A DNA stretch of 64,000 nt, from the NCBI GenBank assembly GCA_013151735.1, contig JAADHR010000199.1, forward strand, positions 8,178 to 72,177, written 5' to 3'. The stretch's first letter is position 1, and each line of letters begins with the position of its first letter. A program made the translations under genes and the position numbers. The notes beneath the pieces were generated by a model, which worked only from the letters and a program-made list of their open reading frames with translations, searched no databases and was not told the DNA's origin. The DNA is from Calditrichota bacterium. Its GTDB lineage: Bacteria > Zhuqueibacterota > JdFR-76 > BMS3Abin05. This document shows positions 24,321 to 43,131 of this stretch, piece by piece.

Positions 24321-24815
24321 ATGAAAGATCGATTTAAATTGGTGAAAATTTTTTTCTGGATATTTTTTTTAGGAACACTTGGCGTAACCAGCACCTTCGC
24401 ATCGGTAAAACAAATTTCCGTAACCCCCCTTTCTCCTGAAGCAGGCAAGGCCTCGGTTTATGAGATTGCTTTCAGCTTGACGGAATCCTTCCCCTCAACC
24501 GGACGTGTGGTTTTGGATTTTCCGGCTGATTTTGATTTGTCGCAGGCCATTCTGGCGGGTTCCCCTAATGTGAACGGTGGATTCAAGGTGTTTGTAGAGG
24601 GACAGAAAGTCATTGTGCGCCGAAGCGGCCTGGGTGCAGCGATAGCTGCCGGCCAATCGATTATCCTTCGTGTGGCAAATATTCGGAATCCGAAATCGGC
24701 TGGAACCTACAGTCTATCGTTTCAGGTGTTGGCCGGAAAGAGGGTTCTGGGAGAGGTAAATTCGGTCTCTTTTTCCGTGTTACCCAGGAAAAGGCCATTG
24801 AAACCCGTTCGGTAG
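24321..24815 (+). CDS. small secreted protein, paralog of the N-terminal domain of the downstream giant surface protein
   Basis: Signal peptide. Residues 28-140 align colinearly with residues 24-140 of the 25331 ORF (SV..V..S...AG....Y.V.F......G..VV.F.A.F.L......A.S....GGF...V.G..V...R.G.G......AG......AN..N...AG.Y.L...V). Confidence 0.5.
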   Translation: MKDRFKLVKIFFWIFFLGTLGVTSTFASVKQISVTPLSPEAGKASVYEIAFSLTESFPSTGRVVLDFPADFDLSQAILAGSPNVNGGFKVFVEGQKVIVRRSGLGAAIAAGQSIILRVANIRNPKSAGTYSLSFQVLAGKRVLGEVNSVSFSVLPRKRPLKPVR

Positions 24816-24878: not shown

Positions 24879-25070
24879 ATGAGAAAGATAAAATTTATTT
24901 TCTGGAAAGAACAGAATGAATGGCTTGGTTATTTGGAAGAATTTCCCGATTACTGGACAGAAGGAAAAACACTTGAAGAATTAAAAGATAATCTGAGGGA
25001 TCTTTACAAAGATTTGGCAGGTGGCGCCATTCCTTCTGTTCGCAAGGTGGACGAACTTGAAGTCGCATGA
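24879..25070 (+). CDS. hicB: HicB-like (UPF0150 fold) antitoxin
   Basis: 63 aa. Pattern FWKEQNEWLGYLEEFPDYWTEGKTLEELKDNLRDLYKDL matches the HicB N-terminal RNaseH-like fold. Stop overlaps the start of the following HicA gene (ATGA). Confidence 0.6.
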   Translation: MRKIKFIFWKEQNEWLGYLEEFPDYWTEGKTLEELKDNLRDLYKDLAGGAIPSVRKVDELEVA

Positions 25071-25246
25071 AAAGAAATGAGCTAATAAAGAGACTAAATC
25101 AGATGGGTTGTATTTTAATCCGTCATGGAGGCCGGCATGATTGGTATCAGAATCCGAAGACAAAACTATCACAACCAGTGCCCCGGCATAGAGAAATTAA
25201 CGATACGCTTGCAAAACATATTTTGAAGATGCTAAAAAACAAGTAG
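25067..25246 (+). CDS. hicA: HicA-family toxin (YcfA-like), 59 aa, absent from the ORF track because it is below the size cutoff
   Basis: Translation: MKRNELIKRLNQMGCILIRHGGRHDWYQNPKTKLSQPVPRHREINDTLAKHILKMLKNK. HicA signature: G-x-L-x-R-x-GG-x-H..Y-x-NP, then a catalytic-His-containing VPRH segment. ATG overlaps the hicB TGA. Confidence 0.7.
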   Translation: MKRNELIKRLNQMGCILIRHGGRHDWYQNPKTKLSQPVPRHREINDTLAKHILKMLKNK

Positions 25247-25255
25247 ATTTATTTT

Positions 25256-25288
25256 AATCTTGCGAAGGTTTCAAACCTTCGCAAGATT
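25256..25288 (+). terminator. perfect 33-nt palindrome (16-bp arms) between hicA and the giant ORF; terminator and/or operator
   Basis: AATCTTGCGAAGGTTT-C-AAACCTTCGCAAGATT. A TTTT tract lies 8 nt downstream. Sits 10 nt after the hicA stop and 43 nt before the giant ORF start. Confidence 0.5.
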
Positions 25289-25330
25289 AAACAGCCTTTT
25301 GTTCTTAACTTTTTAAATAATGGTTGCCCT

Positions 25331-28300: not shown

Positions 28301-31300
28301 TCCATTGGAAGTCTGAGCGATGCGACAGGAACAAGCACGGTCTTTACGGCAACCACAGTCGGTCAGGGAAGCATCACAGCGGACCACGCCACGGCCCTGG
28401 ATGATGCGACGGGAACCCTTACGGTGGTTGAGGGAAATCTGGATCACATTGTCATTCGCGATGCTCCGGGTGGAGCCGGTAATGTGGTTGGAAACGTCAA
28501 TCTGACGGCCGACCAGTCGATTACGCTTTACGCGGCCGGTTACGATGCCGCAGACAATTATCTGGGCGATTACAGTGCAACCTGGTCACTTGCTTCCGGA
28601 AATCTGGCTCCGGTTCCCAGTGGCTCGGCCAGCAGTTTTACCTTCAATCCGACCACAGCCCCTGCTTCCGGGGTCATTCAGGCCAGTTACAATGCCATTA
28701 CGGATGTTACGGGAACGATTTCCGTTTCAGTAGGCGCTCTGGCAAAGGTTCAAATCCGAACGGCAGCGAATGGCGGCGGGGTTGAAGTTACCACGCACAC
28801 CATGACCACGGATGAAACCTTTACCGTGTGGGCGGCCGGTTACGATGCCGACGATAATTTCATTGCGGATACAACGGTCAGCTGGACTTCAACCGGGCTT
28901 ACCCCGGCCCTTTCCTCAAGCGGAAGAAGTGTCACCCTTGATCCCACCGCTCCGGGGACAGCCACCGTAACGGCCACAGAACCCAATTCCGGCCTGACGG
29001 ACAACACAGGAGCCATTGTGATCAATCCGGGAGCCATCACGCACCTTCTGGTAAGGAGCGAAGCCGGCGGGGGCGGAATGGAGGTGGGCGATATGACACT
29101 CACCCTGGACGATAAACTGACCCTCTACGCGGCGGGGTATGATGCCGAGAATAATTACTCGCGGGATGTGGTAGCAACGTGGAGTGTAAGCACCGGTAAT
29201 TTGGATGCTCCCAGTCCTGCAACAGGAACCAGTACGGTTTTTGCCCCCTCGACTCCCGAAACCAGCGGCAAAATTCGGGCGGACAGCACAGGCCTGATCG
29301 GAGACGAAACCGGTACGTTAACAGTGGGCAATGTGTCGTACGTGAAAATTCGGGACGCGGCAAACGGGGCCGGAAGCGAAGTGGGGGATCGAACCCTGAC
29401 GGCCGACGAATCTCTGACCCTTTACGCGGCCGGTTACGATGCCGGGGGGAATTACGTGGGCGATGTGTCGGTCACATGGAGCAGCACGGGTTCGTTAGCC
29501 CCGGCTATCTCGGGGGTAACCGGTACGAGTGTGACATTTTCACCCACAACGGCACCGGCAAGCGGCACAATTTTGGCGGATCACGCGACGGCAACAGACG
29601 ACGTGACCGGTACCATTACCGTCACGCCGGGGGTGCCGGTGGGTACCATTTCCCTTTCTGCTTCACCCACAGCCATTCCGGCGGATGGCAGCAGTACATC
29701 CACCATTACATCCGGTGTCATAAAAGATGCGGACGGCAATCCTGTGGCTCAGGGAACGCTGATTACCGTTAGCACAAGTTTAGGAACCATTATCACGGCA
29801 GACGCCAGTGCGTCCTACACAGGCACCCAGGTAGCTGCGAATGCCAGCGGACAAATTAGCTTCACACTTCAGGCTCCCGCTTCGGGCGGAACGGCCTACA
29901 TTTCGGCTGCCAGTGTGGGCGGAAGTGCCACCGGCAGCACGACCGTGCAGATTACAAATCTTAGAATTGTGAGTATTTCGTCGGATTTTTCATCGGTCAG
30001 TCAGGGTCAAACCAACATTCCCGTACGAATGGTGGTTGAAAATCTGGGGAGTGCGGCCCTGCAAAATGCCACCGCGAACCTCACATTTACCGATGTCGCC
30101 AGTAACGATCGCACGGGTGAGTATTCCGGGATCTCCCAAACCGGGATCTCCGTTGCTGCCGGAGAGACCAAGACCCTGACTTTTTCCGTTTCCGTTGGGG
30201 GCTCGGCGTCACTGGGCTCGATTATTATTGACGGGAATATCAGCGGTACGGTCGACGGAAATTCTGTTGGAACCAGCGGCGCCGGAACGCCCTACAGCTG
30301 GGTGGTACAAACACCAGCCGCTCTGGAAGTGCTTTCCGTTCAAACCACACCGGACAGTGTCAGTCAGGGCCAGCAAGGTATTTCGGTTGTTTTGACGGCC
30401 CGAAATACAGGGCAAGCCGCGGCATCGATTGACTCGATTAAATTATCCTTTAAAATAGGTGCTACAACGGTTACCAGTGAGTACATTCAATCGCAGGCGT
30501 CGGGAAACCCGGTTCAAATTGCGGGGGGCGCAACCGAACAGTTTGAAATGAAAGTGGATGTTTCTGCCTCTGCCACAACCGGAACGGTCAACTTGGATGG
30601 CGCGATTTACGGAAAAGACGCCAATTCATCTGCGGCTGTTGTTGATGTTGGTGCAGCGTCAACCGATTCCTGGGTGGTCACACAGGCAGCCGCCTTTCAA
30701 ATTACGGCTCTGATTCCCTCCCAATACAAAGTGACCTCGGGGCAAACGCGAAGCTGGACCGTCAAAATGGCGGTGGAAAATAATAGCAGTTCCGCTATCG
30801 ATTTGGATTTGGATCCGGCAAAAACCTATCTCAAATTTGTGATTGGGAGTGATGTGACGTCGCAATATTCAATAACCTACCCGACCGCTCTTTTGGGAGG
30901 GGGAATCCGCTTGAATGCCGGGGCAAAAGATACCCTAAAATTTGTAGTGAATATTACCGGAACAACAACAGGAATTGCAGCCATTAATGGAGTTGTGACG
31001 GGAACAGACGTGATTTCCGGCAAGGCCATTACAGACAACACAAATGATACGGGATCAGGGTCGGTTACGGTGCAGACACCGGCATCTGTGAATGTAACGT
31101 CGGTGGTTCCTTCACAGGATTCCGTAAGCAGCGGTCAAACCGCAACATGGAATGTAACGGTGACCGTAGAAAATACCGGACAGAGCGCGGCCACCCTTTC
31201 GCTCGACAGCACACTCCTGAGCTTTCGGAAAGGAACCGGGTACGTCTTTCTCAAGCCGTCTCAATTTCAAGGCGGGGGTCTGGTTCTGAATGGAAATTCT

Positions 31301-34300
31301 TCGGGCACACTGATTTTTTCAATTACAAAAACCACGACTTTTTCCGGAACAGACAGCATTGACGCAACAGTCGGTTTTTTTGAAAATAACAGTGGTCGTT
31401 ACGTTGTGGCCAACACGGCGGCCGGAAATTACGGTACCGTGATTGTGCAGACGCCTGCCGCCTTTTCTATTCTCAGTGTTCACCCGTCGCAGCCAACCGT
31501 TACACAACATCAAACCAACACCTGGACCGCGACAGTTGTGGTTAAGAATACCGGACAAAGCCGGGCTGTAATTGATTTTCAACAGGCGAGCACCTTTTTA
31601 TCATTCTCCAAAAACGGAACCCCCCTTTCTGATTATGCCGTTCAGCAACCCTCTGCTCTGGAAGGAAGTGGTGGAAGTATTCTCTACGGGGGGAAAACGG
31701 ACAGTCTTACATTTGTGATTGCCACCACCGGTGCCGATACGGGGTCAATTACCATTCATGCGACCCTTGCGGGTACCGAGGCGAACAGCGGACGGTCGGT
31801 GAGTACGAATACGTTTGGCGGAAATAGCGGGCTTGTGGAGGTTCAGGCGCCGCCGGTTTTGTCGTACATTGCGGCGTCCTTAAGTCCCAAGAGTGTGAAT
31901 CGCGGGAGCAATGCATCTTTTGAAGTGCGGGTGCGAAATTCGGGAGGGGCCACACTGGTACTGTCTCCCTCGGAAACAAAATTTAGTTTTTCGGACGGTG
32001 TCCATTCCTTTGAAGCCTTTTTGAACGAGAATGTGGTCACCGAAGTTCAGCCGGGTGATACGACCCTGGTTTTTGTGTCCACCCTTGTTCCCGAACTGCT
32101 GGCTACGGGAAACTACACACCTGACATTACGCTCAGCGGAACGCAGAATGGGAATGCATTTCAGGCCAATTTGACGACCGGAACCAATGAGCTGGCCGTT
32201 CTTGAGAAGGCCGTTCTGGATATCGTGTCCATTACTCCTTCCCAAACCCAGGTGACAAGCGGACAGACCCGGCAATGGTATATTTGGATGAATGTGGCCA
32301 ACAACGGGGGCTCGAGCGTCCGCCTCGATAGTACCCAGGTTCATTTGTTCATCGGAACAGAAGTAACGGACGAATATTCCATTACCGTTCCCACCGGTTT
32401 TTGGCAGCAGGACGGCACGGAAAATCCCGTTCTTCAGGGAAATGAGACGGGTACACTGCGTTTTGTGGTAACTCACACCGGGTCTACCACTGGGCCGGCA
32501 ACCATTCAGGGCCGGCTTTGGGTGACCGATCAGGTTAGTCACGACCAGCTCTTTGTTCAAACGGATGGCGGGGCAGGGACGGTTCGCGTGCAGTCGCCGG
32601 CCGAATTAAAAATCAATTACACCATTGTTTCTCAGGCAGCCGTTACCATTGGGCAAACCGAGGATTGGTTTGTAACCCTTAATCTTTCAAATAAAGGCGA
32701 GAGCAGTCTTCGGATTGACACAACCCGGGCGAAGACCTACCTTACTTTTACCATTAACGGGCAACCGGTTCAGGATTTTGTAGTGAAACAACCTACCGAG
32801 CTTTCCAACGGGAGCCTCATTTTACAGGGGGGGGAATCCGCCAGATTGGTTTTTACGATTGATTCAACGACCAGCCGAACGGGATATTGCGTCATTCACG
32901 CACATGTTACGGGGGTGGAAGTCAACTCCGATTCCCTGATTGTGGATGAGAATTATGATTCGGGTTGGAATGGGGTTAATGTGCAGTCAGAGTCCAGTGT
33001 TCAGATTGTGAGTACGGAAAATCTTGCATTTAATGCACCGAACGTGAATACGGGTCAAACATTTAATATTCGTGTCCGTGTCCGAAACAATGGCGGGGAG
33101 GCCATTAAAAATGTAAAGGTGGCTCTTGCGTCTACGGGCCGTTCTATTTTTACGTCGCCGAGAACCATTACCCGGATTAATGCGGGCCTTTCGTATTCTT
33201 TAAACTTTTCGATAAGGGCATCGAGCGATTTTGATTCTACAGAAATATTTACCTCGCGGTTGTTGGAGGCCTATTCGGCAAATACCGGTGACACGATTAC
33301 CGTTGCGCCCGCTGCAGATTCAACCGATACCACAACATTTGCGAAAATCCAAAAACCGGCCGCGCTCGTGATTAGGGAGGTTTATCCCTCACAAGATCGG
33401 GTTTTGGCCAGCCAGACCGACGAATGGCAGGTCTTTGTGGTGGTACAGGATACCGGACAGGCCAATATCCTGCTGAATGATTTTAAAAATACCGACATTG
33501 TCTTTCAGATTAATGGGCAGAACCAGGGAGATTATCTAATTGAAGCCCCGGACTCGCTCCGCGGTGGTGGTCAGGAACTGGTGGGAGGGCAAACGGACAC
33601 ACTGGTTTATCGAATCAAAGCCACCGGCCATTTGGGGGGAACCGCCACCATTTTGGCCACCTTAAACGGCCGGGATGTAAACAGCCTGCACACGCTTTCC
33701 GCGTCCAATAGCACCAGCATCCTGGTCCAAACCTCGGCAGCGATCCAAATTATTAACACAACCATTTCATCCCCTCACGTGGTGGATAATGGAAATGCAG
33801 AAGTCAATCTGAAGCAGCAATTTACGGTAAATGTGTTTGTAGAAAATAAGGGGAACGAACGGGTCGATAGTGTGAAAGTCCGATTGCGAACAAAAGGCCA
33901 TTCACAGTTGCTGGATTCCCTTCGCACAATTCCTACAATTCCGGCCCGATCCATTCGGTTCGCTCAATTCGATGTAATCGCCGATTCGGCAGAAAATCTT
34001 CTGGGGGAAGAGTTCGATTCACGATTGATCAGCGGAAAGGCGTTTGTGAGCCACTTACCGGCCGTTCTTTCCGAAGCCTTGGATTCCGTAGCCGTGGCCC
34101 GGATTGAGAAACCGGCGCAACTGGAGGTTGTGGGAAGTTTAAACGATCAGGACGGTATTTTGTCGGCCAATCAGACCTTTGAGGTTCGGGCCGATGTCGT
34201 AAACAAGGGGCGCTCCGGAACAATTGGTTCCGGGACCATTGCAGTGGAATTGCCTGAAAATTATCGGCTGCTCCGCAATGGCGACACCCTTTCCGTAAGT

Positions 34301-36685
34301 GGGGATACCACAACCTTTTCCGTTGGCACGCGTGTGACGTGGAAAGTGCTGACGCCGCAAGCTACTCAGGGGCCGGACACATTGTTTTTAAAGCTATTAA
34401 CCGCGCCCAAAGATGAAAATACACTAAAAGCCGCAGCGGTTATCCAGGCACAAGATACACTCATTGTAAATACAATTGGAACCAGCCAGATTGCCAGTAG
34501 CGGTGCCGTTGTGAATCCTCCGGGGGCACGGGATGGGGTTGTTTCGACAGAAGAAGAATTTACGGTGGTCACACATATTTCAGCCACGCCCAATCTCACC
34601 CAATTGAAGGGCGAATTGACCATTCCTCAGGGTTACGTGTATTTGTCGCCAAAAATAAAAAGTGTTCAGGGTGATTCTATCGTCTGGACTATTCGTTCGC
34701 CGGAAATTCAGGATCAGGAGACCAAGTATCTTCGCATTACCGCCCGGGGGACGGACGAATCGGGTACGCTGGTGGAAAGCAGTGTGGACAGCATTTCCAT
34801 TCGCGCCGTCAAGCGGGCTAATCTTTCTCTGGATGTTTACATTACCGAACCACAGGGTGCCAAGGACGGCGTGCTGACGGTGGGCCAGCCCTTCATTGTC
34901 CGCGCGCTGGTTACAAACAGCGGACAAGCCGGGGTGTACGGCACGGGGAAGGTCAAAATAATTTTTGGTGCTACAGGTGTTTCCACGAACGAGCCGCTGG
35001 AAAAAGAATTTACGCCGGGTATCCCTGTCGATTGGCGGGTACAGGCGCCCGATACGGTGACAACTGAAGCCCTTATTCGGGTGCAGATCAGCGCTGTTCC
35101 GTATGACGAAAATTCAAACCGGCTTAGCTTTGTTTCGGTGGACAGCAGAAATTTGCGTGTAGAAACCGTCCAATCGGCAAAACTAACGAATACGTTGTCC
35201 ATCTCCAGTCCTGAAGGAGCAAAAGACGGTATTATTTCCACATCTCAGGAATTTCTTGTGGAAGCGGTGGTTCAATCCGAGAATTGTTCCCGGATCACCT
35301 CCGAACTGATTCTTCCGGCGGATTTTTACACAGAGAACCGTGTGAAGAATGCCAACCCCGGTTATTTTGTGGTGTCGTGGCTGGTGCGGGCGCCATCAGA
35401 GCCAAAATCCCCGGTACCGATAAAGGTTATTTCCCGGGCGTATGATGCCAATGATGATACGCTTCGAATCATTAGCCAGCCGGATAGCGTAGAGGTGACC
35501 ACCGTCAGCCGGGCCAATGTGGCGGTGAACGTTTCCATCACCGATCCGCCCGAAGCAGCCAATGGCATTGTTTCCACCCAGGAGGAATTTACGGTTACGG
35601 GTGTTCTTCAAAATCTCGGTCTGGCGAATTTTGAAACAGAGGGGTCGTTGAAAATCATTCTTCCGAAAGGTTTTGTCCTGAAGAGCGACACTATTCAGGA
35701 AACACAGCTCTATCGGGTAAGCTGGCGGGTACAGGCGCCTGAGCAGCCCACACGCTCTCCTCAAAATATTCGGATAGAACTTGTGCAGGCACCGAAGGAT
35801 GAAAACACCAATAAATCGTCCTTTGTTTCGGCGTCCTTTGATGAAATAGCCTTGACCGTGGAAACGAAAAAATTTACGATTTTAAAATGGGGCGATTTTA
35901 ATCAACCCTCGGTCGTGAAAGGCCAAAAAAATATTGCCGTTTTGGGGTTGATCTTAAAAAACCTGGGACTTCCCGGATCGAATGATGTGTGGCTGAGCGG
36001 ACTGCGGATTCAAATCCAAAATCGGAAAGGGAATCTGATTTCCCCCAAAGGCAATTTTGAACGGATTTGGATTGCACCGGCCATGTATCCCGATCAGGTT
36101 CTGGCGGAAAGCCTGAATCCCCAGAATAATCCGGTGGAATTTTCATTTTCCAGTCCGCTGGTTGTAAGAGCCGTCAAAAATGATTCCATTGCCGTTTTTG
36201 TGGATTTGTCACCCAATTCCAAACTGACCGATTTCTTGATTGCGTTTGACGGGGTAAAGGATGTTACGGCAATAGACGGCGTCTCCAAACGTCCCGTCCT
36301 GATTACCGACGCTGCCGGAAATCCGTTGGAAACCCTGAAGGTACAATCCGACTTTACGGTGGTTCTGAATTCAAATTTTGAAAAAACCTTCGGAAATTAT
36401 CCCAATCCTTTTGGAGAGATTGGAAAAGAGACGACCCGGTTTGTCTATTATTTTGACCGGGCCACCGATGGTCAGATTCAGATTTTTACATTAACCGGAG
36501 ATCTGGTCTGGACGAAAGCCATCGAAGCGAATAAACAAACCGGGGCCAAGGGACTTCACGACGGAGACATTGTCTGGGATGGCACCAATTTATCGGGTCT
36601 GAAGGTGGTGAATGGTGTTTATATTGCGGTTCTGACCACGAAGAGCGGGAAAAAGGCATTTACCAAGATTGCTGTTGTTAAATAA
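25331..36685 (+). CDS. giant (3784 aa) repeat-rich cell-surface protein with T9SS-type C-terminal sorting domain
   Basis: Signal peptide. Five ~96-aa repeats (ISPQTAGTAF.ITITAKDA.GN). Eight ~100-aa Big_2-like repeats (IRDAAGG.GSEVG...YAAGYDA.GNY). One Big_1/invasin-like domain. ~20 CARDB-like ~115-aa domains. C-terminal NYPNPF...GVYIAVLTTKSGKKAFTKIAVVK, a Por_Secre_tail-type CTD. Confidence 0.85.
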   Translation: MKRLFAVLNLSVLFLVFSGNVFAQSVDAVTLSTAKAGENAIYTVTFTPSATNFVPNNGKIVVTFDAGFTLNSVTIASSSTMDGGFSISVAGDSVTFTRDGTGTPSAAGAQVDISFANVGNNQIAGSYNLKVTIKQNDDTPIETIGTKSFTITPADLDHFAFGAISPQTAGTNFQITITAQDAYNNTITTANYSLTLIDDTGTLTTIAAGSWLNGVISPTVNITKATASDKITATANGISSTSGSFAVNPAGVSSFEFATIASPQTAGSAFSVTITAKDAYDNVATGFSGSVNLTVNKGDISPASSGIFSSGTKTVSVTINTANTDIQITADDGSGHTGTSNTFNVNPGPVASFAISAISSQAAGEPFTITVTAKDAQGNTATSFAGTVDISDGTNTISPATSGSFSNGLWSGSVTITGTQTGNTITVTNSAGAETGTSNAFDVTASDVAYFTVSTISSPQTAGTAFSITITAKDANGNTAASFTGTASLSDSTGTISPKLTRAFTNGTLTDTVTITQSFTNNQIVVSAVGKSGSSNAFDVNPGALDHFTLDAINSPQTAGTAFDITITAKDAFENTITSYSGTPTISNTTGTISPTTAGAFSNGVRTESVTITKAASSDQITVTDGAVTGSSNTFTVQAGALDHIVIEDAPGGTGAPVGALSKTTDQNVSLFAIGYDANNNYVEDVSVSWSVSGGIGTVSPATGTNTVFNPTTVGSGTVSADDGSGHTDDTGTITVTAGALASLQIRDSAGGAGSVVGNYLMTTDQSLTVYAAGYDADGNYISDQSVTWSSTGLTPSLSGTATSSTFSPTATGSGTITATSGSLSAHTGAITVSAGALAAIKIRDEAGGGGSEVGAVSMTTDDSRTFYAAGYDAEGNYKEDISVTWASTGNLSPAVSSTGTSVTFSPDSANRSGTITADAGSGITDATGTISVSVGALKYVKIVAGATGNGAEYTTGTFSPGDQQTFHAAGYDADGNYIADESVAWSLTGSIGSLSDATGTSTVFTATTVGQGSITADHATALDDATGTLTVVEGNLDHIVIRDAPGGAGNVVGNVNLTADQSITLYAAGYDAADNYLGDYSATWSLASGNLAPVPSGSASSFTFNPTTAPASGVIQASYNAITDVTGTISVSVGALAKVQIRTAANGGGVEVTTHTMTTDETFTVWAAGYDADDNFIADTTVSWTSTGLTPALSSSGRSVTLDPTAPGTATVTATEPNSGLTDNTGAIVINPGAITHLLVRSEAGGGGMEVGDMTLTLDDKLTLYAAGYDAENNYSRDVVATWSVSTGNLDAPSPATGTSTVFAPSTPETSGKIRADSTGLIGDETGTLTVGNVSYVKIRDAANGAGSEVGDRTLTADESLTLYAAGYDAGGNYVGDVSVTWSSTGSLAPAISGVTGTSVTFSPTTAPASGTILADHATATDDVTGTITVTPGVPVGTISLSASPTAIPADGSSTSTITSGVIKDADGNPVAQGTLITVSTSLGTIITADASASYTGTQVAANASGQISFTLQAPASGGTAYISAASVGGSATGSTTVQITNLRIVSISSDFSSVSQGQTNIPVRMVVENLGSAALQNATANLTFTDVASNDRTGEYSGISQTGISVAAGETKTLTFSVSVGGSASLGSIIIDGNISGTVDGNSVGTSGAGTPYSWVVQTPAALEVLSVQTTPDSVSQGQQGISVVLTARNTGQAAASIDSIKLSFKIGATTVTSEYIQSQASGNPVQIAGGATEQFEMKVDVSASATTGTVNLDGAIYGKDANSSAAVVDVGAASTDSWVVTQAAAFQITALIPSQYKVTSGQTRSWTVKMAVENNSSSAIDLDLDPAKTYLKFVIGSDVTSQYSITYPTALLGGGIRLNAGAKDTLKFVVNITGTTTGIAAINGVVTGTDVISGKAITDNTNDTGSGSVTVQTPASVNVTSVVPSQDSVSSGQTATWNVTVTVENTGQSAATLSLDSTLLSFRKGTGYVFLKPSQFQGGGLVLNGNSSGTLIFSITKTTTFSGTDSIDATVGFFENNSGRYVVANTAAGNYGTVIVQTPAAFSILSVHPSQPTVTQHQTNTWTATVVVKNTGQSRAVIDFQQASTFLSFSKNGTPLSDYAVQQPSALEGSGGSILYGGKTDSLTFVIATTGADTGSITIHATLAGTEANSGRSVSTNTFGGNSGLVEVQAPPVLSYIAASLSPKSVNRGSNASFEVRVRNSGGATLVLSPSETKFSFSDGVHSFEAFLNENVVTEVQPGDTTLVFVSTLVPELLATGNYTPDITLSGTQNGNAFQANLTTGTNELAVLEKAVLDIVSITPSQTQVTSGQTRQWYIWMNVANNGGSSVRLDSTQVHLFIGTEVTDEYSITVPTGFWQQDGTENPVLQGNETGTLRFVVTHTGSTTGPATIQGRLWVTDQVSHDQLFVQTDGGAGTVRVQSPAELKINYTIVSQAAVTIGQTEDWFVTLNLSNKGESSLRIDTTRAKTYLTFTINGQPVQDFVVKQPTELSNGSLILQGGESARLVFTIDSTTSRTGYCVIHAHVTGVEVNSDSLIVDENYDSGWNGVNVQSESSVQIVSTENLAFNAPNVNTGQTFNIRVRVRNNGGEAIKNVKVALASTGRSIFTSPRTITRINAGLSYSLNFSIRASSDFDSTEIFTSRLLEAYSANTGDTITVAPAADSTDTTTFAKIQKPAALVIREVYPSQDRVLASQTDEWQVFVVVQDTGQANILLNDFKNTDIVFQINGQNQGDYLIEAPDSLRGGGQELVGGQTDTLVYRIKATGHLGGTATILATLNGRDVNSLHTLSASNSTSILVQTSAAIQIINTTISSPHVVDNGNAEVNLKQQFTVNVFVENKGNERVDSVKVRLRTKGHSQLLDSLRTIPTIPARSIRFAQFDVIADSAENLLGEEFDSRLISGKAFVSHLPAVLSEALDSVAVARIEKPAQLEVVGSLNDQDGILSANQTFEVRADVVNKGRSGTIGSGTIAVELPENYRLLRNGDTLSVSGDTTTFSVGTRVTWKVLTPQATQGPDTLFLKLLTAPKDENTLKAAAVIQAQDTLIVNTIGTSQIASSGAVVNPPGARDGVVSTEEEFTVVTHISATPNLTQLKGELTIPQGYVYLSPKIKSVQGDSIVWTIRSPEIQDQETKYLRITARGTDESGTLVESSVDSISIRAVKRANLSLDVYITEPQGAKDGVLTVGQPFIVRALVTNSGQAGVYGTGKVKIIFGATGVSTNEPLEKEFTPGIPVDWRVQAPDTVTTEALIRVQISAVPYDENSNRLSFVSVDSRNLRVETVQSAKLTNTLSISSPEGAKDGIISTSQEFLVEAVVQSENCSRITSELILPADFYTENRVKNANPGYFVVSWLVRAPSEPKSPVPIKVISRAYDANDDTLRIISQPDSVEVTTVSRANVAVNVSITDPPEAANGIVSTQEEFTVTGVLQNLGLANFETEGSLKIILPKGFVLKSDTIQETQLYRVSWRVQAPEQPTRSPQNIRIELVQAPKDENTNKSSFVSASFDEIALTVETKKFTILKWGDFNQPSVVKGQKNIAVLGLILKNLGLPGSNDVWLSGLRIQIQNRKGNLISPKGNFERIWIAPAMYPDQVLAESLNPQNNPVEFSFSSPLVVRAVKNDSIAVFVDLSPNSKLTDFLIAFDGVKDVTAIDGVSKRPVLITDAAGNPLETLKVQSDFTVVLNSNFEKTFGNYPNPFGEIGKETTRFVYYFDRATDGQIQIFTLTGDLVWTKAIEANKQTGAKGLHDGDIVWDGTNLSGLKVVNGVYIAVLTTKSGKKAFTKIAVVK
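25799..27236 (+). repeat. intragenic tandem repeat block A (5 copies, ~288-nt period)
   Basis: Recurring CAAAC(A/G)GCCGGTAC..TTT.CATTAC.ATTACGGCCAAAGATGCC at roughly 25831, 26118, 26413, 26718 and 27000. Confidence 0.6.
27237..29636 (+). repeat. intragenic tandem repeat block B (8 copies, ~300-nt period, Big_2-like Ig domains)
   Basis: Recurring TACGC(G/C)GCCGGTTACGATGCCGA(C/G)GG.AA.TAC encoding YAAGYDADGNY. Unit starts near 27240, 27545, 27845, 28150, 28440, 28740, 29045 and 29340. Confidence 0.6.
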
Positions 36686-36697
36686 GAAGGTTTTAGA

Positions 36698-38605
36698 ATG
36701 AAGAAAAATTTCACATATTATTTTCTTGGATTGTTTTTTCTAGTGTTGCTCCACCCGGGTTTTGCACAGGATGGAAGCGGCGGTTACGCCAGTATATTCG
36801 CGAACGGAGCAGGCGCCAGACAATTGGGAATGGGGGGAGCAGCGGTCGCTTTTCCACAGGATGCCACCACCATTTTTTGGAACCCGGCAGGAATGGAACA
36901 GCTTCAACGCCAAAGCTTTACCGCCTATTATGCCTCTCTTATGCTTGGGACATCCTACAACTACCTCGGCTATGTGTACCCCACTCTAAATATTGGAACA
37001 TTTGGAATGGGGGTTTCAAGAATTTCGACCGGTGACATTCCCTATCGGGAGAATCACTATGTGGAATTGGGCACATTCGGTTATAATCAGGAAGAATTTT
37101 ATTTTTCTTACGCTAAAAATATCCGTGATTGGTTTGTTGCCGGTGCCAATGTCAAGATCGAACGTCAGGTGATAGGCCAGGATTCCGATATTGGATTTGG
37201 AATTGATGTGGCGGCATTTTATAAACCTGATTTTGCCTCGGAGTGGCTGCAGAATTTACAGGTGGGGGCCATTTATCAGAATGCCTATGCTCCGCGCCTG
37301 CGGTTGCGCCAAAGTGTAGATTACATGCCAAGCCGGCTGCGGTTAGGAGTGGCAAAAACCCTCTATTTTACGAACGATACGTCCCCTTTTGTTGTGCTGA
37401 TGGATCTGGAAAAGGGTGATCAGCTGCCGTTTAAATTCCATTTGGGACTGGAGTACAGCTACAACGGCCAGGCCATGCTTCGGTTGGGACTGAATGACCG
37501 GGGCCTTTCGTTTGGTGCAGGGGCGGTTTACAATCAGTTTGAATTGGATTATTCCTACGGAAGGATCGATTCCAAAGGCGTTTTGGGGGGAAGTCACCGG
37601 ATTTCATTTGTTGTGAATATTGGAAAGAGCCGTTCCGAGAAAATTCAATTAATTGAAGCCCAGCGCCGAAAAGAGCTGGAAGAACAAATTGCCCGGGAAA
37701 ACGAACGCCGCAGGCAGGCACAGATCAGAAAACTCCTGGATGAAGGGAAGTCTCTGTATGCCAATGCCGATTATTTTAAGGCGCTCGTAAAATTCCAGCA
37801 GGTTTTGGAATTGGATAAGAGCAATCCCGAAGCCCTGGAAATGGCGGATGAAACCAAGGCCCGGATGGACGAACTTCGCGAAAAGGAAATGGAGCAGCAG
37901 CTTTCGAAAATCCAGGAAGAACGCCAGCGCAAGCAAATTCAAAGCTATGTGGACAAACATGTGAACAAAGGATTGGAATATCTGAAACAGGGAGATTATG
38001 TTTCCGCCATTGATGAATGGAATTTGGCTTTGGAACGACAACCGGACAGCCAGCAGATCAAGCAGTACATCGAAAGTGCCCAAAATGAACTGCTGACCCG
38101 GATTAACGGTCTTATTTCCAAAGCGGACGAGCTGGCCAAAAAGGGGAATTTCCCTGAGGCCAATAAGCTCTACAATCAGGCCCTGCTGCTCAGCCAGAAC
38201 GATAGCGTCCGCAAGGAAGAAATTCGCAAAAAAATGGCGGAGCTGGAGAAAAAACTCAATATGTACGATTATTACCAATCCGGCCTGATTGCCTATCGTT
38301 CGGAGGACTGGAAAACGGCGATGAAGAATTTTGAGCGGGCCCTGAAACTCAATCCAAAGGATCCGAAAATTCAACGTTATTATAAGGATGCCGAACGACA
38401 CGCCATGGCCCGCAAGCAGCAAATGACGCCGGAAATGGAAAAAAAGTTTAATAAGGCTCTTCAACTCTACGTGGATGATCGAATCGAGGAGGCGTTGAAA
38501 ATCTGGGAGAGTCTGCTGGAAAAACAACCTTACAACAAAGATATAATTGACGCGATTGACATGGCCAAAAAACAACTTCAAGAACGGCAGAAAGCTCGAA
38601 AGTAA
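36698..38605 (+). CDS. PorV/PorQ-like outer-membrane beta-barrel fused to a C-terminal coiled-coil/TPR domain
   Basis: Signal peptide. N-terminal ~310 aa with the PorV/PorQ-family signature (ARQLGMGGAAVAFPQDATTIFWNPAG) and an alternating beta-strand pattern. C-terminal ~300 aa is coiled coil plus TPR. Starts 12 nt after the giant CTD-cargo gene. Confidence 0.55.
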   Translation: MKKNFTYYFLGLFFLVLLHPGFAQDGSGGYASIFANGAGARQLGMGGAAVAFPQDATTIFWNPAGMEQLQRQSFTAYYASLMLGTSYNYLGYVYPTLNIGTFGMGVSRISTGDIPYRENHYVELGTFGYNQEEFYFSYAKNIRDWFVAGANVKIERQVIGQDSDIGFGIDVAAFYKPDFASEWLQNLQVGAIYQNAYAPRLRLRQSVDYMPSRLRLGVAKTLYFTNDTSPFVVLMDLEKGDQLPFKFHLGLEYSYNGQAMLRLGLNDRGLSFGAGAVYNQFELDYSYGRIDSKGVLGGSHRISFVVNIGKSRSEKIQLIEAQRRKELEEQIARENERRRQAQIRKLLDEGKSLYANADYFKALVKFQQVLELDKSNPEALEMADETKARMDELREKEMEQQLSKIQEERQRKQIQSYVDKHVNKGLEYLKQGDYVSAIDEWNLALERQPDSQQIKQYIESAQNELLTRINGLISKADELAKKGNFPEANKLYNQALLLSQNDSVRKEEIRKKMAELEKKLNMYDYYQSGLIAYRSEDWKTAMKNFERALKLNPKDPKIQRYYKDAERHAMARKQQMTPEMEKKFNKALQLYVDDRIEEALKIWESLLEKQPYNKDIIDAIDMAKKQLQERQKARK

Positions 38606-38607
38606 CC

Positions 38608-41600
38608 GTGTTCAAGAAAATTAAAAAAGAAGAACTTCGGGTTCCGGCCTCCATTGAACACCTGAAGGACCTGAGAAAATTCATCGAGAAAATTGGCAAA
38701 AAACACCGCATTCCGGATAAAATTGTCAATAGCTTCAAATTGGCAATTGATGAAGCCAGTACCAACATCATTCGTCATGCGTACCGGGATTCCTCCGGCG
38801 AAATCCTGCTTCGTGTCATTATCCGAAAAACCAGCGTCACCGTTTCTCTTATCGATCATGGCCGATTTTTTGATCCGAATAATGTGAAGGATCCCGATCT
38901 CAAGCGCTATGTAGCCATCGGAAAGCGGGGCGGGCTGGGTATTTTTATGATTCGGAAGTTGGTCGACGATATTGAATACTACCGTACCGGTGAGGGAAAT
39001 GAACTTCGGTTAACCAAAAAAATTGAAAAAAAGCGCAAAGCAAAAATTAGTGTTCCTTCTATTCCGGGTTCGCTGCGAATAAAATACTATTCCTATTCTG
39101 CAGCGATCCTCTCAACGCTGATTATTTTAGGCTATTTTTATTTTTTCTTCCAGCGAAGTGAGCAAATTCTGGATCAGACATTTGCACAGGGAGAAGCCGC
39201 CGTAAAGGTTCTGGCAAAAAACAGCACCAACTGGATCGGCACGGCAGCGGAGCTCAACCTGAATAAAGAAGTGAAAGTGATTCTTACCCAAAATCCAAAA
39301 CTGTTGACCTATGCCGTAGTTGTGGACAAAAATGGTGTGGTGAAGGGGTCAACCGATTTCGATCTGTTTCGGGTCTTTAAGCCCTATTCGGGTGTTGTGA
39401 CAGAAAAGGTCTTCGGAGAAGAGCGGGCTTTGGTTCGGCTGCCAAATGGCGAAAAAGAATATATGATTAGCAAGCCCATTTACGTAATTGATCATACCGT
39501 TCCAAATTCAAAACGATTTATGGGCAGAGCCTATGTATTTATTTCAAGCAGGCAGGTAAATCATTGGATTCATCAAAAACGCACAGATGATCTGCGTGTA
39601 GCGCTTTTGCTCCTGCTTTTTGGAAATATTGGGGTGGCGCTGTTAATTACGCTGATTATCAGCCCCTTTCGGAAATTGGCAAGCTGGGTGCGAAATGCCA
39701 GTGAGGGCAATATTGAAGATGAGATGGAAATTGATTCCTCGGACGAAATTGGGGAAATTGCTCAGGCGTTTAATGAAATCACGTATAAATTTCGGAAATC
39801 ACAGCAAAGCCTGCAAGATCAGGAACGCCTGAAACATGAAATGCATTTGGCGCAGGAAATTCAACAAACCCTGCTCCCGGCGAAATTTCCAAAAAGACGG
39901 GGATTCGAAATCTCATCTTATTATGAGTCGGCAAAGGAAGTAGGGGGGGACTATTACGATTTTGTGGAGATTGATCCGGATCGTCTGGGGGTGGTTATTG
40001 CCGATGTGTCGGGAAAAGGAGTCCCCGGTTCGCTGGTCATGACGATGATTCGTACGGCTCTGCGCACAGAGGCCAGGGGAACCTATTCGGCAGCTGAAAC
40101 GCTGAGAAAGGTGAATCGATTCATCATGGGGGATATTAAAAAGGGAATGTTTGTGACGGTTTTTTACACCATTCTGAATTCCCGAAACAGAAGTCTGACC
40201 TATGCCAGTGCAGGCCATAACCCCATGATCCTGTATCGTCCCAGCACAAAAAAAACCTACTATTTAAATCCGAGGGGATTTCCGGTTGGGATCAGCCTCA
40301 ATGATGAGGAACTCTTCGACAAGTCGCTGGAAGATGATTCCATCCGGTTGGCAAAGGGGGATATTGTCATCATTTACACCGATGGAGTAACCGAGGCCAT
40401 GAACTCCAGGCGGGAACTCTTTGGGGAAGAGCGTCTGCTGGAAGCTGTTCGCCGGTATGGAAATTTGAGCGCAGAAGAGTTCGTAGCCAAACTTCGGGAA
40501 GAAATTGTCTCCTTCACGGAAGGCCAGATTCAATACGATGACATTTCGCTCGTGGTGATTAAAGAAAACATGGATCAGGAAGAAGAGTACGAGGAACGCG
40601 CCCGTGAGGCCTATTATCAGGTACTCAACGGTGTTTCCGCGACGCAGGCCTGTAAGAATGTGGGCCTTTCCTTCAATACCTTCAAAAAATACAAGGAAAA
40701 ATTTGAAGAGGTCGGGGTTGATAATTTTCGTTCGGACTATGAGGCCACGGCCGTTGAAGCCAAGCACTTAAGTATTGAAGAACAAACGAAGATATTCGAT
40801 ATCATCAAGAAGCATCCGGATTACGGTCCCAGGCGAATTGCGGAATTACTTGCCACCGACACCTATGGCAATATGACTATTTCTGAAAACCGGGTTTACG
40901 GTGAACTGGTTCGCCTGAAGTTGAATACGAAACAGCTTCGCGAAAATTTCGTGGTGCGGAATAAACATAAGCGCAAATTCAAACCTCCCGGAACCCCAAT
41001 GCTTACTCTGGATGGACGGGTTATCATTGATAATGCGCCGGCGAAATTATCGGCTCCCATTCTGAGAGAACCCGAAGAAGAATCCTCTGTTGAGAAAACC
41101 GAAGAATTCAACGGAGAAACACTCTCCGCTGAAATAGAAGAAATTACATCGACGGAAGGATTGGGTCTGGAAGTAGGTGAGGCAGAATCCGCACAGGAGA
41201 AACCGCCGCGTCCAAGGGCGAAAAGGCGGGAAGAAAAGTCCTTAATGGATGAAGATATTGAAGAAATTATTCTTTCAGACCCCGTGGATGTTTTCGATAA
41301 AAATAAGGGAATGGAAACAGAGCCGGAAGAAGAACTTTTGGGGGATGAAAATGATGAAGAAAAAACCGACCTTTCGGAGATCGAGGGAATTGAGGTTTTG
41401 GAACGCACACATGCCCGGGATGTGAGTAATATGGATTCTGACAAAATCGAATCATCAAAAAAGGAAATGGATTTGGATCAGAGAGAGGAAAGCGGCACAT
41501 CTCTAAAAAAATTGTTTGAGTCGCTGAATATGGCGGGTGATGGCGAAGATGTTTCGGAGAGTGAATCCGGAGAAGAAGAGCTCGACCTGCTGCAGTATTC

Positions 41601-42369
41601 CATTTTGGAAGATGGTGACTTGTTGGAGGAAGGCGAATTTTCGGATCAGGGAATGCAAGCAGACAAAACGGAATCGGAACCCGCAACAGGAGAAATCCCG
41701 CCAGCTGAAGAAATCTTCCCGAATGGAAACTCAGAAAAAAGCGACGAGGAACCGGAACCGGAGATTTCCCTGGAGAAAATATTTGGACAATTAAGTGTGC
41801 AGGGTGAAGAGGACGTTGAAGACCGTTCCGTACAAGAAAACTTCAATAGAATTGAAGATTTGGTCGATAATATAATTGTTGAGGAGGAGGAAATTGAGGG
41901 GGTCTTGGAGAGCGAGGATACTGAAAAAATCCAAGAGAAACAGAAAACCATTCCCAAAAAAGAAATAGATGAAGCCTCAAAGGTAAAACGCCTCCTGCTA
42001 ACGGGATTACGGTTCTATCTGGATAAAGATTTTAAAAAGGCCATTGCTGTTTTCAAAAAGATTATCGATGAGTATCCCGATCATTTCGAAGCGCATTACA
42101 ATTTGGGTAATGCCTATTTCAGAATGAAGGATTTTGACAAGGCCGAGCGGGAATACCTGAAGGTGATCGAAATCGATCCGTCATTCACGGATGCCCATGA
42201 AAATTTGGGTGTCATTTATGCCAACCGCAAGGACTTTAAAAAAGCCATTCAAATCTGGAAAAAGATCCTGGAAATCAAGCCGGATCGGAAGGATGTGAAA
42301 AAAAATATTGAAAAGGCCCTAAAATTGAGTAAAAGTCAAAAACATAAAGAAACCACAACAACTGAATGA
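38608..42369 (+). CDS. multidomain signalling protein: RsbW-like GHKL Ser kinase + TM + periplasmic sensor + TM + HAMP + SpoIIE/PP2C phosphatase + transposase-like HTH fragment + acidic linker + TPR
   Basis: GTG start 2 nt after the upstream stop. N-terminus SFKLAIDEASTNIIRHAY (anti-sigma kinase HATPase). TM helices near aa 160-185 and 330-355. HAMP. PP2C motifs DYYDF, IADVSGKGVPGS, IYTDGVTEA. Acidic low-complexity region aa ~820-1110. C-terminal TPRs. Confidence 0.75.
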   Translation: MFKKIKKEELRVPASIEHLKDLRKFIEKIGKKHRIPDKIVNSFKLAIDEASTNIIRHAYRDSSGEILLRVIIRKTSVTVSLIDHGRFFDPNNVKDPDLKRYVAIGKRGGLGIFMIRKLVDDIEYYRTGEGNELRLTKKIEKKRKAKISVPSIPGSLRIKYYSYSAAILSTLIILGYFYFFFQRSEQILDQTFAQGEAAVKVLAKNSTNWIGTAAELNLNKEVKVILTQNPKLLTYAVVVDKNGVVKGSTDFDLFRVFKPYSGVVTEKVFGEERALVRLPNGEKEYMISKPIYVIDHTVPNSKRFMGRAYVFISSRQVNHWIHQKRTDDLRVALLLLLFGNIGVALLITLIISPFRKLASWVRNASEGNIEDEMEIDSSDEIGEIAQAFNEITYKFRKSQQSLQDQERLKHEMHLAQEIQQTLLPAKFPKRRGFEISSYYESAKEVGGDYYDFVEIDPDRLGVVIADVSGKGVPGSLVMTMIRTALRTEARGTYSAAETLRKVNRFIMGDIKKGMFVTVFYTILNSRNRSLTYASAGHNPMILYRPSTKKTYYLNPRGFPVGISLNDEELFDKSLEDDSIRLAKGDIVIIYTDGVTEAMNSRRELFGEERLLEAVRRYGNLSAEEFVAKLREEIVSFTEGQIQYDDISLVVIKENMDQEEEYEERAREAYYQVLNGVSATQACKNVGLSFNTFKKYKEKFEEVGVDNFRSDYEATAVEAKHLSIEEQTKIFDIIKKHPDYGPRRIAELLATDTYGNMTISENRVYGELVRLKLNTKQLRENFVVRNKHKRKFKPPGTPMLTLDGRVIIDNAPAKLSAPILREPEEESSVEKTEEFNGETLSAEIEEITSTEGLGLEVGEAESAQEKPPRPRAKRREEKSLMDEDIEEIILSDPVDVFDKNKGMETEPEEELLGDENDEEKTDLSEIEGIEVLERTHARDVSNMDSDKIESSKKEMDLDQREESGTSLKKLFESLNMAGDGEDVSESESGEEELDLLQYSILEDGDLLEEGEFSDQGMQADKTESEPATGEIPPAEEIFPNGNSEKSDEEPEPEISLEKIFGQLSVQGEEDVEDRSVQENFNRIEDLVDNIIVEEEEIEGVLESEDTEKIQEKQKTIPKKEIDEASKVKRLLLTGLRFYLDKDFKKAIAVFKKIIDEYPDHFEAHYNLGNAYFRMKDFDKAEREYLKVIEIDPSFTDAHENLGVIYANRKDFKKAIQIWKKILEIKPDRKDVKKNIEKALKLSKSQKHKETTTTE

Positions 42370-42444
42370 AAAAAATAATATTGATTTTTTCTGTAAATTC
42401 ATTTATATTAGCGTGAGTCATTATTCTCATAAAGGAGACAATCA

Positions 42445-43131
42445 ATGGAAGGAATCCAGGTATCGGTATCCAAAACAGGCCCTCAAAACAGCGTATCCGT
42501 TATAAAAGTAGGGGGCTATATTGATACAACGACTTCTGCTGAATTAGAACGTGCTCTCGATCACCTATTGCGGGCGGGGAATTACAATATCGTGGTTGAC
42601 CTGGGTAATGTGGACTACATCAGTAGTGCCGGCTGGGGTATTTTTATCAGTGAAATCAAGGGCATTCGGGAGAAAAACGGAGACCTCAAACTGGCAAATA
42701 TGATTCCGGATGTTTATGAAGTTTTTGAACTTTTGGAGTTTCACTATATTCTAAAAGCATTTGATTCCATTGAAGAAGCCGTTCGTGACTTTAACAAAGA
42801 TTCCCTGGGAAAAAGCGTTGCTGAATTTCAAGCAGATTCATCGACAAATGAATCCCTGCCGGAAGAAAGTCAGGCACAAATCCCCAATGAGGGCGTTTCC
42901 GATATTTCATCGGCTCAGACGACGGTTTCAAAAAAGAGCCTTCAGGAGAAAATTCGCCAGGCGGTTATGGACAAGCCGGATGCCAGTCTTCTGGAAATAA
43001 AAAATGATTTAAATACTGAAAAATATGGTTTTACCAAAATCGGAATGTTCCGTCTCTGGAAGGAATTGGGGAAGTTGGGTCTGGGTTCAAAGAAAAAAAG
43101 AATCGCCTTTTTCAAAAAGCATGCATTTTAG
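42445..43131 (+). CDS. STAS-domain anti-sigma-factor antagonist (RsbV/SpoIIAA-like) with ~110-aa C-terminal extension
   Basis: N-terminal 115 aa has STAS fold hallmarks (VIKVGGYIDTTTSAELERAL...DLGNVDYISSAGWGIF; phosphorylatable Ser context DYISSAG). C-terminal region is Ser/Glu-rich, then a basic helical segment. Confidence 0.75.
   Translation: MEGIQVSVSKTGPQNSVSVIKVGGYIDTTTSAELERALDHLLRAGNYNIVVDLGNVDYISSAGWGIFISEIKGIREKNGDLKLANMIPDVYEVFELLEFHYILKAFDSIEEAVRDFNKDSLGKSVAEFQADSSTNESLPEESQAQIPNEGVSDISSAQTTVSKKSLQEKIRQAVMDKPDASLLEIKNDLNTEKYGFTKIGMFRLWKELGKLGLGSKKKRIAFFKKHAF

Follow-up and report, generated by a model that had tools for sequence, protein, structure and literature searches.

A conserved transposase-type helix-turn-helix pair in a predicted membrane-bound kinase-phosphatase, with a related domain on its STAS partner, in Calditrichota and Zhuqueibacterota

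The usual end point of a partner-switching module is a sigma factor. In SypE/SypA of Vibrio fischeri, HsbR/HsbA and CrsR/CrsA, an RsbW-type kinase and a PP2C phosphatase are carried on one polypeptide. The STAS protein SypA is the downstream effector of the fused kinase/phosphatase, with its target still unidentified (PMC10120452), and both SypE/SypA and HsbR/HsbA are tied to cell-surface structures (PMC10120452, PMC6482189). Here we describe a locus with the same fused arrangement in a 64,000-nt stretch of contig JAADHR010000199.1 from a Calditrichota bacterium (the window; coordinates refer to it, and features lie on the plus strand unless stated otherwise). Its gene 38608-42369 is a 1253-aa open reading frame (ORF) with a GTG start, encoding a membrane-bound bifunctional partner-switching enzyme, in which Pfam and NCBIfam place, in order, a kinase domain, a transmembrane (TM) segment, a sensor, a second TM segment, HAMP, PP2C, a bipartite helix-turn-helix (HTH) module, an acidic intrinsically disordered region and TPR. 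As in SypE/HsbR-type systems, the kinase is a GHKL domain of the RsbW/SpoIIAB type, the PP2C domain is on the same polypeptide and a STAS protein is encoded next to it, the activities being predicted. The original prediction had read the HTH region as the N-terminus of an IS481/IS3-type transposase embedded in frame in this gene, either an ancient insertion sequence (IS) decayed into a linker or a domesticated DNA-binding module. We find that the module is an ancient, integral cytoplasmic domain, as judged from its conservation, and not an IS remnant or the insertion of a mobile element into the gene.

The transposase-like double HTH proved genuine and far beyond chance in NCBIfam, profile-profile and tblastn matches. 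It had been placed at nt 40560-41040, which corresponds to aa 651-811 of the ORF, and the three peptides quoted for it are all present there. The module matched the NCBIfam IS481 transposase model NF033577 at E=8e-11 over model positions 9-115 of 284, with weaker matches to the IS3 (1e-5), IS630 (7e-5) and ISNCY (5e-3) models and then to IS21. All 35 diverse family members matched the IS481 model over the same 107 positions (1e-8 to 1e-12), and 26 of the 35 also matched the IS3 model. In hhalign, the family profile aligned with a profile of 112 IS481 transposases at 87% probability (E=4e-6), and the alignment was collinear, pairing family positions 4-120 with transposase residues 6-119. Furthermore, tblastn against 72,556 plasmids returned an annotated Streptomyces IS481 transposase (E=2e-5). 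On these alignments, the module and the DNA-binding N-terminus of the IS481/IS3/IS630 transposases belong to one HTH superfamily. Pfam gave a mixed outcome: the expected transposase-type families HTH_32, HTH_29, HTH_21, HTH_28 and HTH_23 were all matched, but every score stayed under its gathering threshold (bits against cut-off in the host protein: HTH_32 20.1/33.7, HTH_29 18.1/28.1, HTH_21 16.1/28.1, HTH_23 14.3/24.6), although HTH_32 reached E<0.01 in 22 of the 35 family members. Because of these sub-threshold scores, databases carry no HTH annotation on these proteins; the entry that is 100% identical to the host protein reads 'SpoIIE family protein phosphatase [Calditrichaeota bacterium]' and has none.

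The module spans aa 655-812 of the 1253-aa protein. An AlphaFold2 (AF2) prediction made from the 35-sequence alignment contains eight helices, namely a linker helix, HTH1, a connector and a four-helix HTH2, with a mean predicted local distance difference test score (pLDDT) of 76.6. The linker is an acidic helix joining the PP2C domain to the module (aa 655-672, 40570-40623; AF2 helix 3-19; net charge -5). HTH1 (aa 673-705, 40624-40722) is HTH_23/28/29-like, lies at the start of the IS481 model match and is formed by AF2 helices 24-31 and 35-48; its recognition helix differs between clades. It is followed by the connector helix (aa 706-722, 40723-40773; AF2 helix 50-65) with a near-invariant VEAKH motif, of which V62, E63, K65 and H66 (A1 numbering) are invariant or near-invariant. 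HTH2 (aa 723-785, 40774-40962) is winged-HTH-like, of the HTH_32/HTH_21 kind (HTH_32 match at aa 691-764), with a fourth helix, LNTKQLRE, and an insert of the LNTEKYG type. The sensor HTH unit is basic (net charge +6, isoelectric point (pI) 9.4). On the minus strand, two antisense ORFs of 167 and 182 aa (40264-40767 and 40896-41444) overlap the module region; both face a strongly conserved coding frame and the GA-rich acidic region, and are most likely spurious.

We considered whether a generic helical linker might score against HTH models by chance or by its composition. The sub-threshold Pfam scores would suit such an explanation, as would a Foldseek search without significant matches (see below) and a profile search of PDB sequences that returned acetyltransferases only (E=2e-3); the latter aligned to His-tag/linker sequence and were rejected as spurious. 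We regard it as very improbable in view of the 35 of 35 members that match one model over identical positions, the independent hhalign and tblastn results, and the two HTH units in the AF2 prediction. A word-indexed protein search with the 182-aa segment alone gave no match at E<=1e-3 even though an identical full-length entry exists, which we take as a limit of the tool and not as absence.

The conservation of the module is that of a working domain. We aligned the 120 best homologues, whose overall identity is 42-100%; about 1800 further homologues reach E<=1e-10. In this alignment, aa 651-800 had an occupancy of 1.00 and a column conservation of 0.66-0.82, compared with 0.72-0.92 for PP2C and 0.14-0.38 for a genuine linker, the acidic region, where occupancy was 0.46-0.89. 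Over 35 sequences with less than 80% mutual identity (44-75% to the window protein), 22 columns of the module were invariant. The rate of nonsynonymous substitution (dN) relative to the closest relative was 0.083 in the module and 0.267 in the acidic region, that is, about 3 times lower in the module; synonymous sites were saturated even for this closest relative, so that these are dN contrasts only and not a proper dN/dS. The module occupied the same position in 120 of 120 homologues and gene order was fixed in about 70 loci, and thus there is no sign of mobility.

These data refute an ancient IS insertion that decayed into a linker, since all 120 homologues carry the module with its 22 invariant columns and low dN. 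A recent or ancient IS insertion reduced to an inert in-frame linker would account for nothing beyond the matches to transposase models and the low-complexity region after the module, and we consider it vanishingly improbable: relatives with the module are encoded in 226 species genomes, and no inverted or direct repeats, no change of composition and no remnant of the rve integrase core accompany it. The search for flanking repeats over 40000-41600 returned only low-complexity repeats rich in GAA and a single inverted repeat of 12 nt, put down to chance, and GC content did not shift over the module. The same segment was found in all relatives compared, an outcome that the original prediction had itself named as counting against an insertion. 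With regard to membership of IS481, the protein has the N-terminal HTH DNA-binding region, while its whole-protein score of 39.8-42.5 bits falls below the 224-bit cut-off and neither an rve core, nor terminal repeats, nor mobility was found.

In a scan of one genome per GTDB species, the 226 species genomes encoding relatives were labelled KSB1/Zhuqueibacterota or Calditrichota/Caldithrix, in addition to metagenome-assembled genomes labelled Deferribacteres or Cytophagia. An exhaustive profile search with the module over 1.84 billion representative proteins gave 331 matches at E<=1e-3 (one per 50%-identity cluster), the majority of which belong to the same enzyme family. Of the 150 best matches, 144 were newly returned proteins, and these we classified. 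They were mostly of the same kinase-PP2C family, and also included a TPR-less subfamily, giant versions of 1.6-2.3 thousand residues, STAS-HTH proteins and a subfamily with a fusion of three STAS domains behind the HTH (e.g., P0183). None of these 144 proteins has an IS481-type catalytic (rve) domain, and for this reason the module would appear to fall into a cellular branch within the superfamily of transposase-type HTHs. The closest outsiders were tandem-HTH proteins from Patescibacteria, standalone or fused to family-2 glycosyltransferases. Six Patescibacteria proteins (P0210, P0222, P0237, P0241, P0204 and P0208) combine two tandem transposase-type double-HTH units with family-2 glycosyltransferases, another non-transposase use of the module that is again tied to surface polysaccharides.

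The module carries a basic tail motif, KPPGTPMLTLDG (aa 792-803, 40981-41016), defined by conservation and with the family consensus PPGTPxLTLxG. In A1 numbering its invariant residues are K138, P140, G141, T142, P143, T146, L147 and G149, and its AF2 confidence is low (pLDDT 53-57). This stretch had been taken for the start of the integrase core around the first DDE aspartate, a claim that the alignments do not bear out: both the HMM and the HH alignments stop at LNT (aa ~774-780), ~15 residues ahead of KPPGTPMLTLDG, and a forced hhalign extension pairs the family PPG with the transposase VPG at zero confidence. The Asp of the motif is S/N/T/G/A in distant members, in which the PPGTPxLTLxG frame is kept, and sister subfamilies lack the motif wholly. 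A tblastn alignment to a Klebsiella IS481 pseudogene does run through the motif with the same LN-to-D spacing of 31 residues, though with no more than E=0.08. The accompanying claim, that the catalytic core is absent and an acidic low-complexity region follows, was borne out, as the rve HMM scored 0.7 bits on aa 780-1253 (a positive-control transposase reached E=2e-13) and the net charge of aa 813-1120 is -69. Taken together, the tail motif is real and near-invariant in its subfamily, yet the alignments give no evidence that it is a vestige of a catalytic core. The motif KPPGTPxLTLDG (PPGTPxLTLxG in distant members) occurs in TPR-ending subfamilies and not in STAS-ending or TPR-less ones (136 proteins have both motif and TPR; 0 of 8 STAS-fused proteins have the motif). 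It may therefore be an intramolecular ligand of the C-terminal TPR domain, a suggestion from a correlation that is confounded by phylogeny.

A transposase ancestry of the module is plausible from these comparisons. In its full form, this origin would mean that the module was exapted from an IS481-like transposase captured at the root of the family, including a vestige of the core start (PG...D). Transposases are the best-scoring named models, with IS481 far above any regulator family; the whole N-terminal architecture is collinear with transposase residues 6-119; and the PG dipeptide and the LN-to-D distance recur in the Klebsiella IS481 copy. On the other hand, profile alignments stop ahead of the motif, its Asp varies, whole sister subfamilies are without it, no rve domain occurs among the classified matches, and HTH_23/28/32 units are also found in non-transposase proteins such as the Patescibacteria glycosyltransferases, so that descent could have run either way. 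We thus judge such an exaptation possible but rather unlikely; it concerns origin, and is compatible with a DNA-binding and a docking function alike. Of the idea of a domesticated DNA-binding module, the conserved, basic, bipartite HTH integral to the protein stands, whereas descent from a transposase is putative.

The remaining domains of the enzyme were well resolved by profile searches. The RsbW/SpoIIAB-type serine kinase (anti-sigma-like) domain (aa 12-137, 38641-39018) matched PF13581 (HATPase_c_2) at E=1.8e-28 over its full length (1-127/127) and NCBIfam RsbW at 1.9e-17. The input section (39079-39777) consists of TM1 (aa 158-182), a sensor region (aa 183-330), TM2 (aa 331-354) and HAMP (aa 346-390; PF00672, 7.8e-9), the TM segments being hydrophobic stretches judged by eye from the sequence. 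The extracytoplasmic sensor region between the two hydrophobic segments is ~150 aa long, and the homologue P0172 has sCache_3_2 at the equivalent position. A Pfam scan of the host protein gave no Response_reg match for a receiver (REC) input, the input consisting instead of TM, sensor, TM and HAMP. The PP2C/SpoIIE serine phosphatase domain (aa 457-652, 39976-40563) matched PF07228 at E=4e-50 (2-190/192). Behind the HTH module, the acidic region (aa 813-1120, 41044-41967), recognized from its charge and low conservation, contains 74 Glu and 26 Asp in 308 aa, and is followed by the C-terminal TPR domain (aa 1125-1235, 41980-42312; TPR_2 3.4e-19, TPR_1 1.1e-18, others). The enzyme is thus, by inference from its domains, a fused kinase and PP2C phosphatase, both predicted to act on the STAS protein encoded next door.

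This STAS protein of 228 aa is encoded directly after the sensor gene (42445-43131) and consists of a STAS domain, a disordered acidic linker and a basic C-terminal four-helix domain. Its STAS domain, an anti-sigma-factor-antagonist domain (aa 1-118, 42445-42798), matched PF01740 at 4.8e-17 and TIGR00377 with 61.6 bits, above cut-off, and its model matched SpoIIAA/RsbV in Foldseek (E=7e-9, TM-score 0.83-0.92). Ser60-Ser61 in DYISSAGWG, the canonical phosphorylation motif, are invariant. From this arrangement, the protein is expected to be the cognate substrate of the enzyme, with phosphorylation predicted at the serine. The C-terminal domain (aa 162-228, 42928-43131) is a basic winged HTH (net charge +10, pI 10.2) and a paralogue of HTH2 of the sensor: BLASTP aligned the two at E=2e-5, and hhalign of 73 STAS orthologues against sensor HTH2 gave 97.8% probability (E=1e-12, 69 columns). 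Both have the LNTEKYG insert and an L-N/G-S/T-K-x-x-R end, and the AF2 model of the STAS winged HTH (pLDDT 76-90) shows the four-helix pattern of sensor HTH2. Since the similarity of the STAS winged HTH to transposases is negligible (4.5%), the two domains are each other's closest relatives. Fusion variants keep HTH and STAS together, as sensors with three fused STAS domains or STAS proteins with two HTHs. A sigma-70-type promoter-like element (42381-42409; TTGATT, 17 nt, TATATT) lies ahead of the STAS-HTH gene. Across the 73 orthologous loci, TATATT is conserved in 62 and TTGACTTT in 38 of the intergenic regions, and in two phyla the form TTGACTTTT, ~17 nt, TATATT is kept in the interval that separates the sensor gene from the STAS-HTH gene (L001-L084). 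From this strongly conserved promoter we infer that the STAS gene is probably transcribed on its own.

The surroundings of the two genes are conserved as well. Of the 82 related loci that we examined, 73 have the giant surface protein first, then the ~640-aa protein, the sensor, the STAS-HTH gene and often icd. In the window, the giant protein is a repetitive surface protein of 3784 aa (25331-36685) that ends in a type A sorting domain of the type IX secretion system (T9SS; TIGR04183, 30.5 bits, cut-off 23), and its C-terminal 600 aa recur as a conserved stretch upstream of the sensor gene at related loci. The second is a 635-aa outer-membrane protein of the PorV/PorQ family (36698-38605; NF033709, 137.5 bits, cut-off 90) with an unusual C-terminal TPR extension, and nearly all related loci have these two genes ahead of the one for the sensor. 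The giant T9SS, PorV-like, sensor and STAS-HTH genes look like one conserved functional cluster, judging from gene order. No sigma-factor gene is among the cluster genes characterised (giant T9SS cargo, PorV-like, sensor, STAS-HTH and often icd), in which no sigma-factor model was searched; a target may be encoded elsewhere in the genome. In the variant loci L002 (6001-13582) and L086 (5985-9361), the sensors have either three fused STAS domains behind the HTH or nothing, and the neighbors in place of the STAS-HTH protein are an ATPase of the ParA/MinD kind, a TPR protein and a pair of STAS-only proteins; both loci still keep the giant-protein/PorV-like pair upstream. At L085 (1674-7034), P0225, a STAS-HTH-coiled-coil-HTH protein, is the last gene of an exopolysaccharide export locus with polysaccharide deacetylase, Bac_transf, Poly_export and Wzz/GNVR genes, which recalls sypA in the Vibrio syp locus. 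A common theme of these loci would be the control of cell-surface structures, as in SypE/SypA and HsbR/HsbA.

Upstream of the giant gene, 24879-25291 of the window contain a HicB-like (UPF0150, weak match)/HicA toxin (PF07927, 43 bits) pair with a palindrome behind it. The pair is located between the giant gene and a small, secreted-looking protein of 164 aa (24321-24815; hydrophobic N-terminus judged from its sequence). This small protein is paralogous to the giant one over the latter's N-terminal ~130 residues (BLASTP E=2e-18, 30% identity). The palindrome, a perfect one of 19+1+19 nt at 25253-25291, lies about 40 nt upstream of the ATG of the giant gene. It is probably the terminator of the HicA gene, because it begins 7 nt past the HicA stop and a T-rich run follows. 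An Rfam scan of 23-46 kb found no RNA family.

We take the HTHs as the output of the switch because the examined part of the cluster has no sigma factor and both partners carry basic HTHs. Binding of nucleic acid is favored by the bipartite DNA-binding layout, which is kept whole, by the basic character of the units, by the lack of a sigma-factor gene among those examined and by the precedents for STAS proteins as effectors. We give roughly even weight for and against the resulting proposal, in which an ancient integral HTH domain in a bifunctional STAS-acting enzyme and the HTH of its partner would form the nucleic-acid-binding output of a sigma-free switch. The extracytoplasmic sensor would set the balance of kinase against phosphatase, and the phosphorylation state of Ser60 would decide whether the STAS-winged-HTH protein is bound by the kinase domain at the membrane or left free. 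The paired-like HTH of the sensor and the winged HTH of the STAS protein would then bind nucleic acid, probably DNA, and in this way link transcription of the neighboring giant T9SS adhesin/PorV cluster, or of other targets, to signals from the envelope. The acidic region may compete intramolecularly for the basic HTHs, and PPGTPxLTLxG may serve as a ligand of the C-terminal TPR domain.

Several observations weigh against a nucleic-acid-binding output. A domain common to enzyme and substrate is equally the picture expected of docking, and the recognition-helix region of HTH2 is almost invariant across two phyla, a pattern that a conserved protein partner would explain no less well than a DNA site. 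The membrane tether of the enzyme would restrict its access to DNA. All Pfam HTH matches of the module remained under gathering thresholds, and Foldseek with the model of the whole 158-aa module gave no significant match, probably because the two lobes are flexibly oriented; the top-ranked neighbors were the bipartite DNA binders Pax6, Pax5 and Tc3 transposase (E>=0.7, TM-score about 0.3, not significant), a ranking that is at most a hint. The palindrome at 25253-25291 was tried as an operator of the HTHs and rejected, with half-sites recurring in the window not above chance, and a k-mer search for a conserved operator in the 73 sensor-STAS intergenic regions recovered only the promoter.

These observations could also be accommodated by homotypic docking, in which sensor HTH2 and the STAS winged HTH bind each other or a common protein, DNA binding having been lost, and so tether the substrate to an enzyme that needs both to phosphorylate and to dephosphorylate STAS. 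Apart from the shared domain itself, docking gains from the variants with STAS domains fused in cis right after the HTH, which would replace the need for it, and from the polar residues of HTH2 (ELVRxRLNTxxLRE), near-invariant across phyla; moreover, the specificity of PPM phosphatases for their STAS substrates is known to be set by docking interfaces (PMC11418112). However, both HTH units are strongly basic, so that a homotypic contact must overcome charge repulsion, the full bipartite layout including HTH1 is retained as in DNA-binding transposase N-termini, and the variants with three fused STAS domains still carry the HTH. Weighing the two sides, docking appears to us a real but somewhat unlikely alternative. 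Within the nucleic-acid-binding proposal, a more elaborate version is conceivable, in which the STAS protein of a sigma-free switch with direct nucleic-acid read-out would be a phospho-controlled winged-HTH transcription factor. The paired-like HTH of the enzyme, exapted from an IS481-type transposase, would co-bind or compete for the same DNA, the -69 acidic tail would act as a DNA mimic, and a PPGTPxLTLxG/TPR latch would be involved as well, so that the state of the giant T9SS-secreted surface protein would be coupled to gene expression across KSB1 and Calditrichota. All of these parts holding together is improbable in our estimate.

The occurrence of related HTHs on an enzyme and on its STAS substrate, with no sigma-factor gene among the cluster genes examined, suggests a direct output route that has not been described, and at least 226 species-level genomes, from two phyla that have received little study, share this conserved architecture. 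Its tie to a T9SS giant surface protein makes it probable that the switch governs a major trait of the cell envelope. Current annotation misses the domain, with entries that read 'SpoIIE family phosphatase' or 'TPR protein', and our literature searches for this architecture found no description. The domain is also a candidate for the bacterial reuse of a DNA-binding module of transposase type in signalling, although descent could have run in the other direction. Reading it as a transposase remnant was wrong, yet a phylum-wide switch with a conserved but unannotated HTH pair on its two partners deserves the attention of signalling research.

Compared with known systems, the module resembles the N-terminus of IS481 (and IS3/IS630) transposases in having two HTH units in the same order and spacing, collinear over ~110 residues, and in the ...Y..L.R..LN... 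signature at the end of HTH2. Identity to IS481 transposases is only about 24-30%, and unlike them the module follows a PP2C domain at a single syntenic locus and has no DDE/rve core, terminal repeats or mobility; the LNTEKYG-type insert and the PPGTPxLTLxG tail are its own and were not seen in transposases. The bipartite DNA binders of the paired-domain or Tc1-mariner type (Pax, Tc3) also consist of two three-helix units and a linker; this likeness is architectural only, and no sequence similarity of the module to Pax/Tc3 was detected. Membrane-tethered one-component regulators of the ToxR/CadC type combine a cytoplasmic DNA-binding domain, an OmpR-like winged helix, with TM segments and an extracytoplasmic sensor. 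They differ from the host enzyme, for which DNA binding is putative, in their HTH class and in having neither enzymatic domains nor a STAS partner. The closest parallel is SypE, which like the host enzyme has its kinase at the N-terminus and its phosphatase at the C-terminus. SypE-type systems and the present locus further share a single cognate STAS protein encoded alongside, a setting in cell-surface or biofilm loci and a STAS protein as the likely downstream effector. SypE has a receiver-domain input, whereas the host enzyme has a two-TM extracytoplasmic sensor with HAMP and, unlike SypE, additional HTH, acidic disordered and TPR regions; SypA and HsbA are STAS-only, whereas the present STAS partner is fused to a winged HTH. 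If true, a sigma-free nucleic-acid read-out would suggest what the effector step of SypA-like STAS proteins looks like. On its domain content and gene order, the locus would work like a SypE/SypA-type switch that differs in its membrane sensor input, its HTH, acidic and TPR extensions, and its STAS-winged-HTH substrate.

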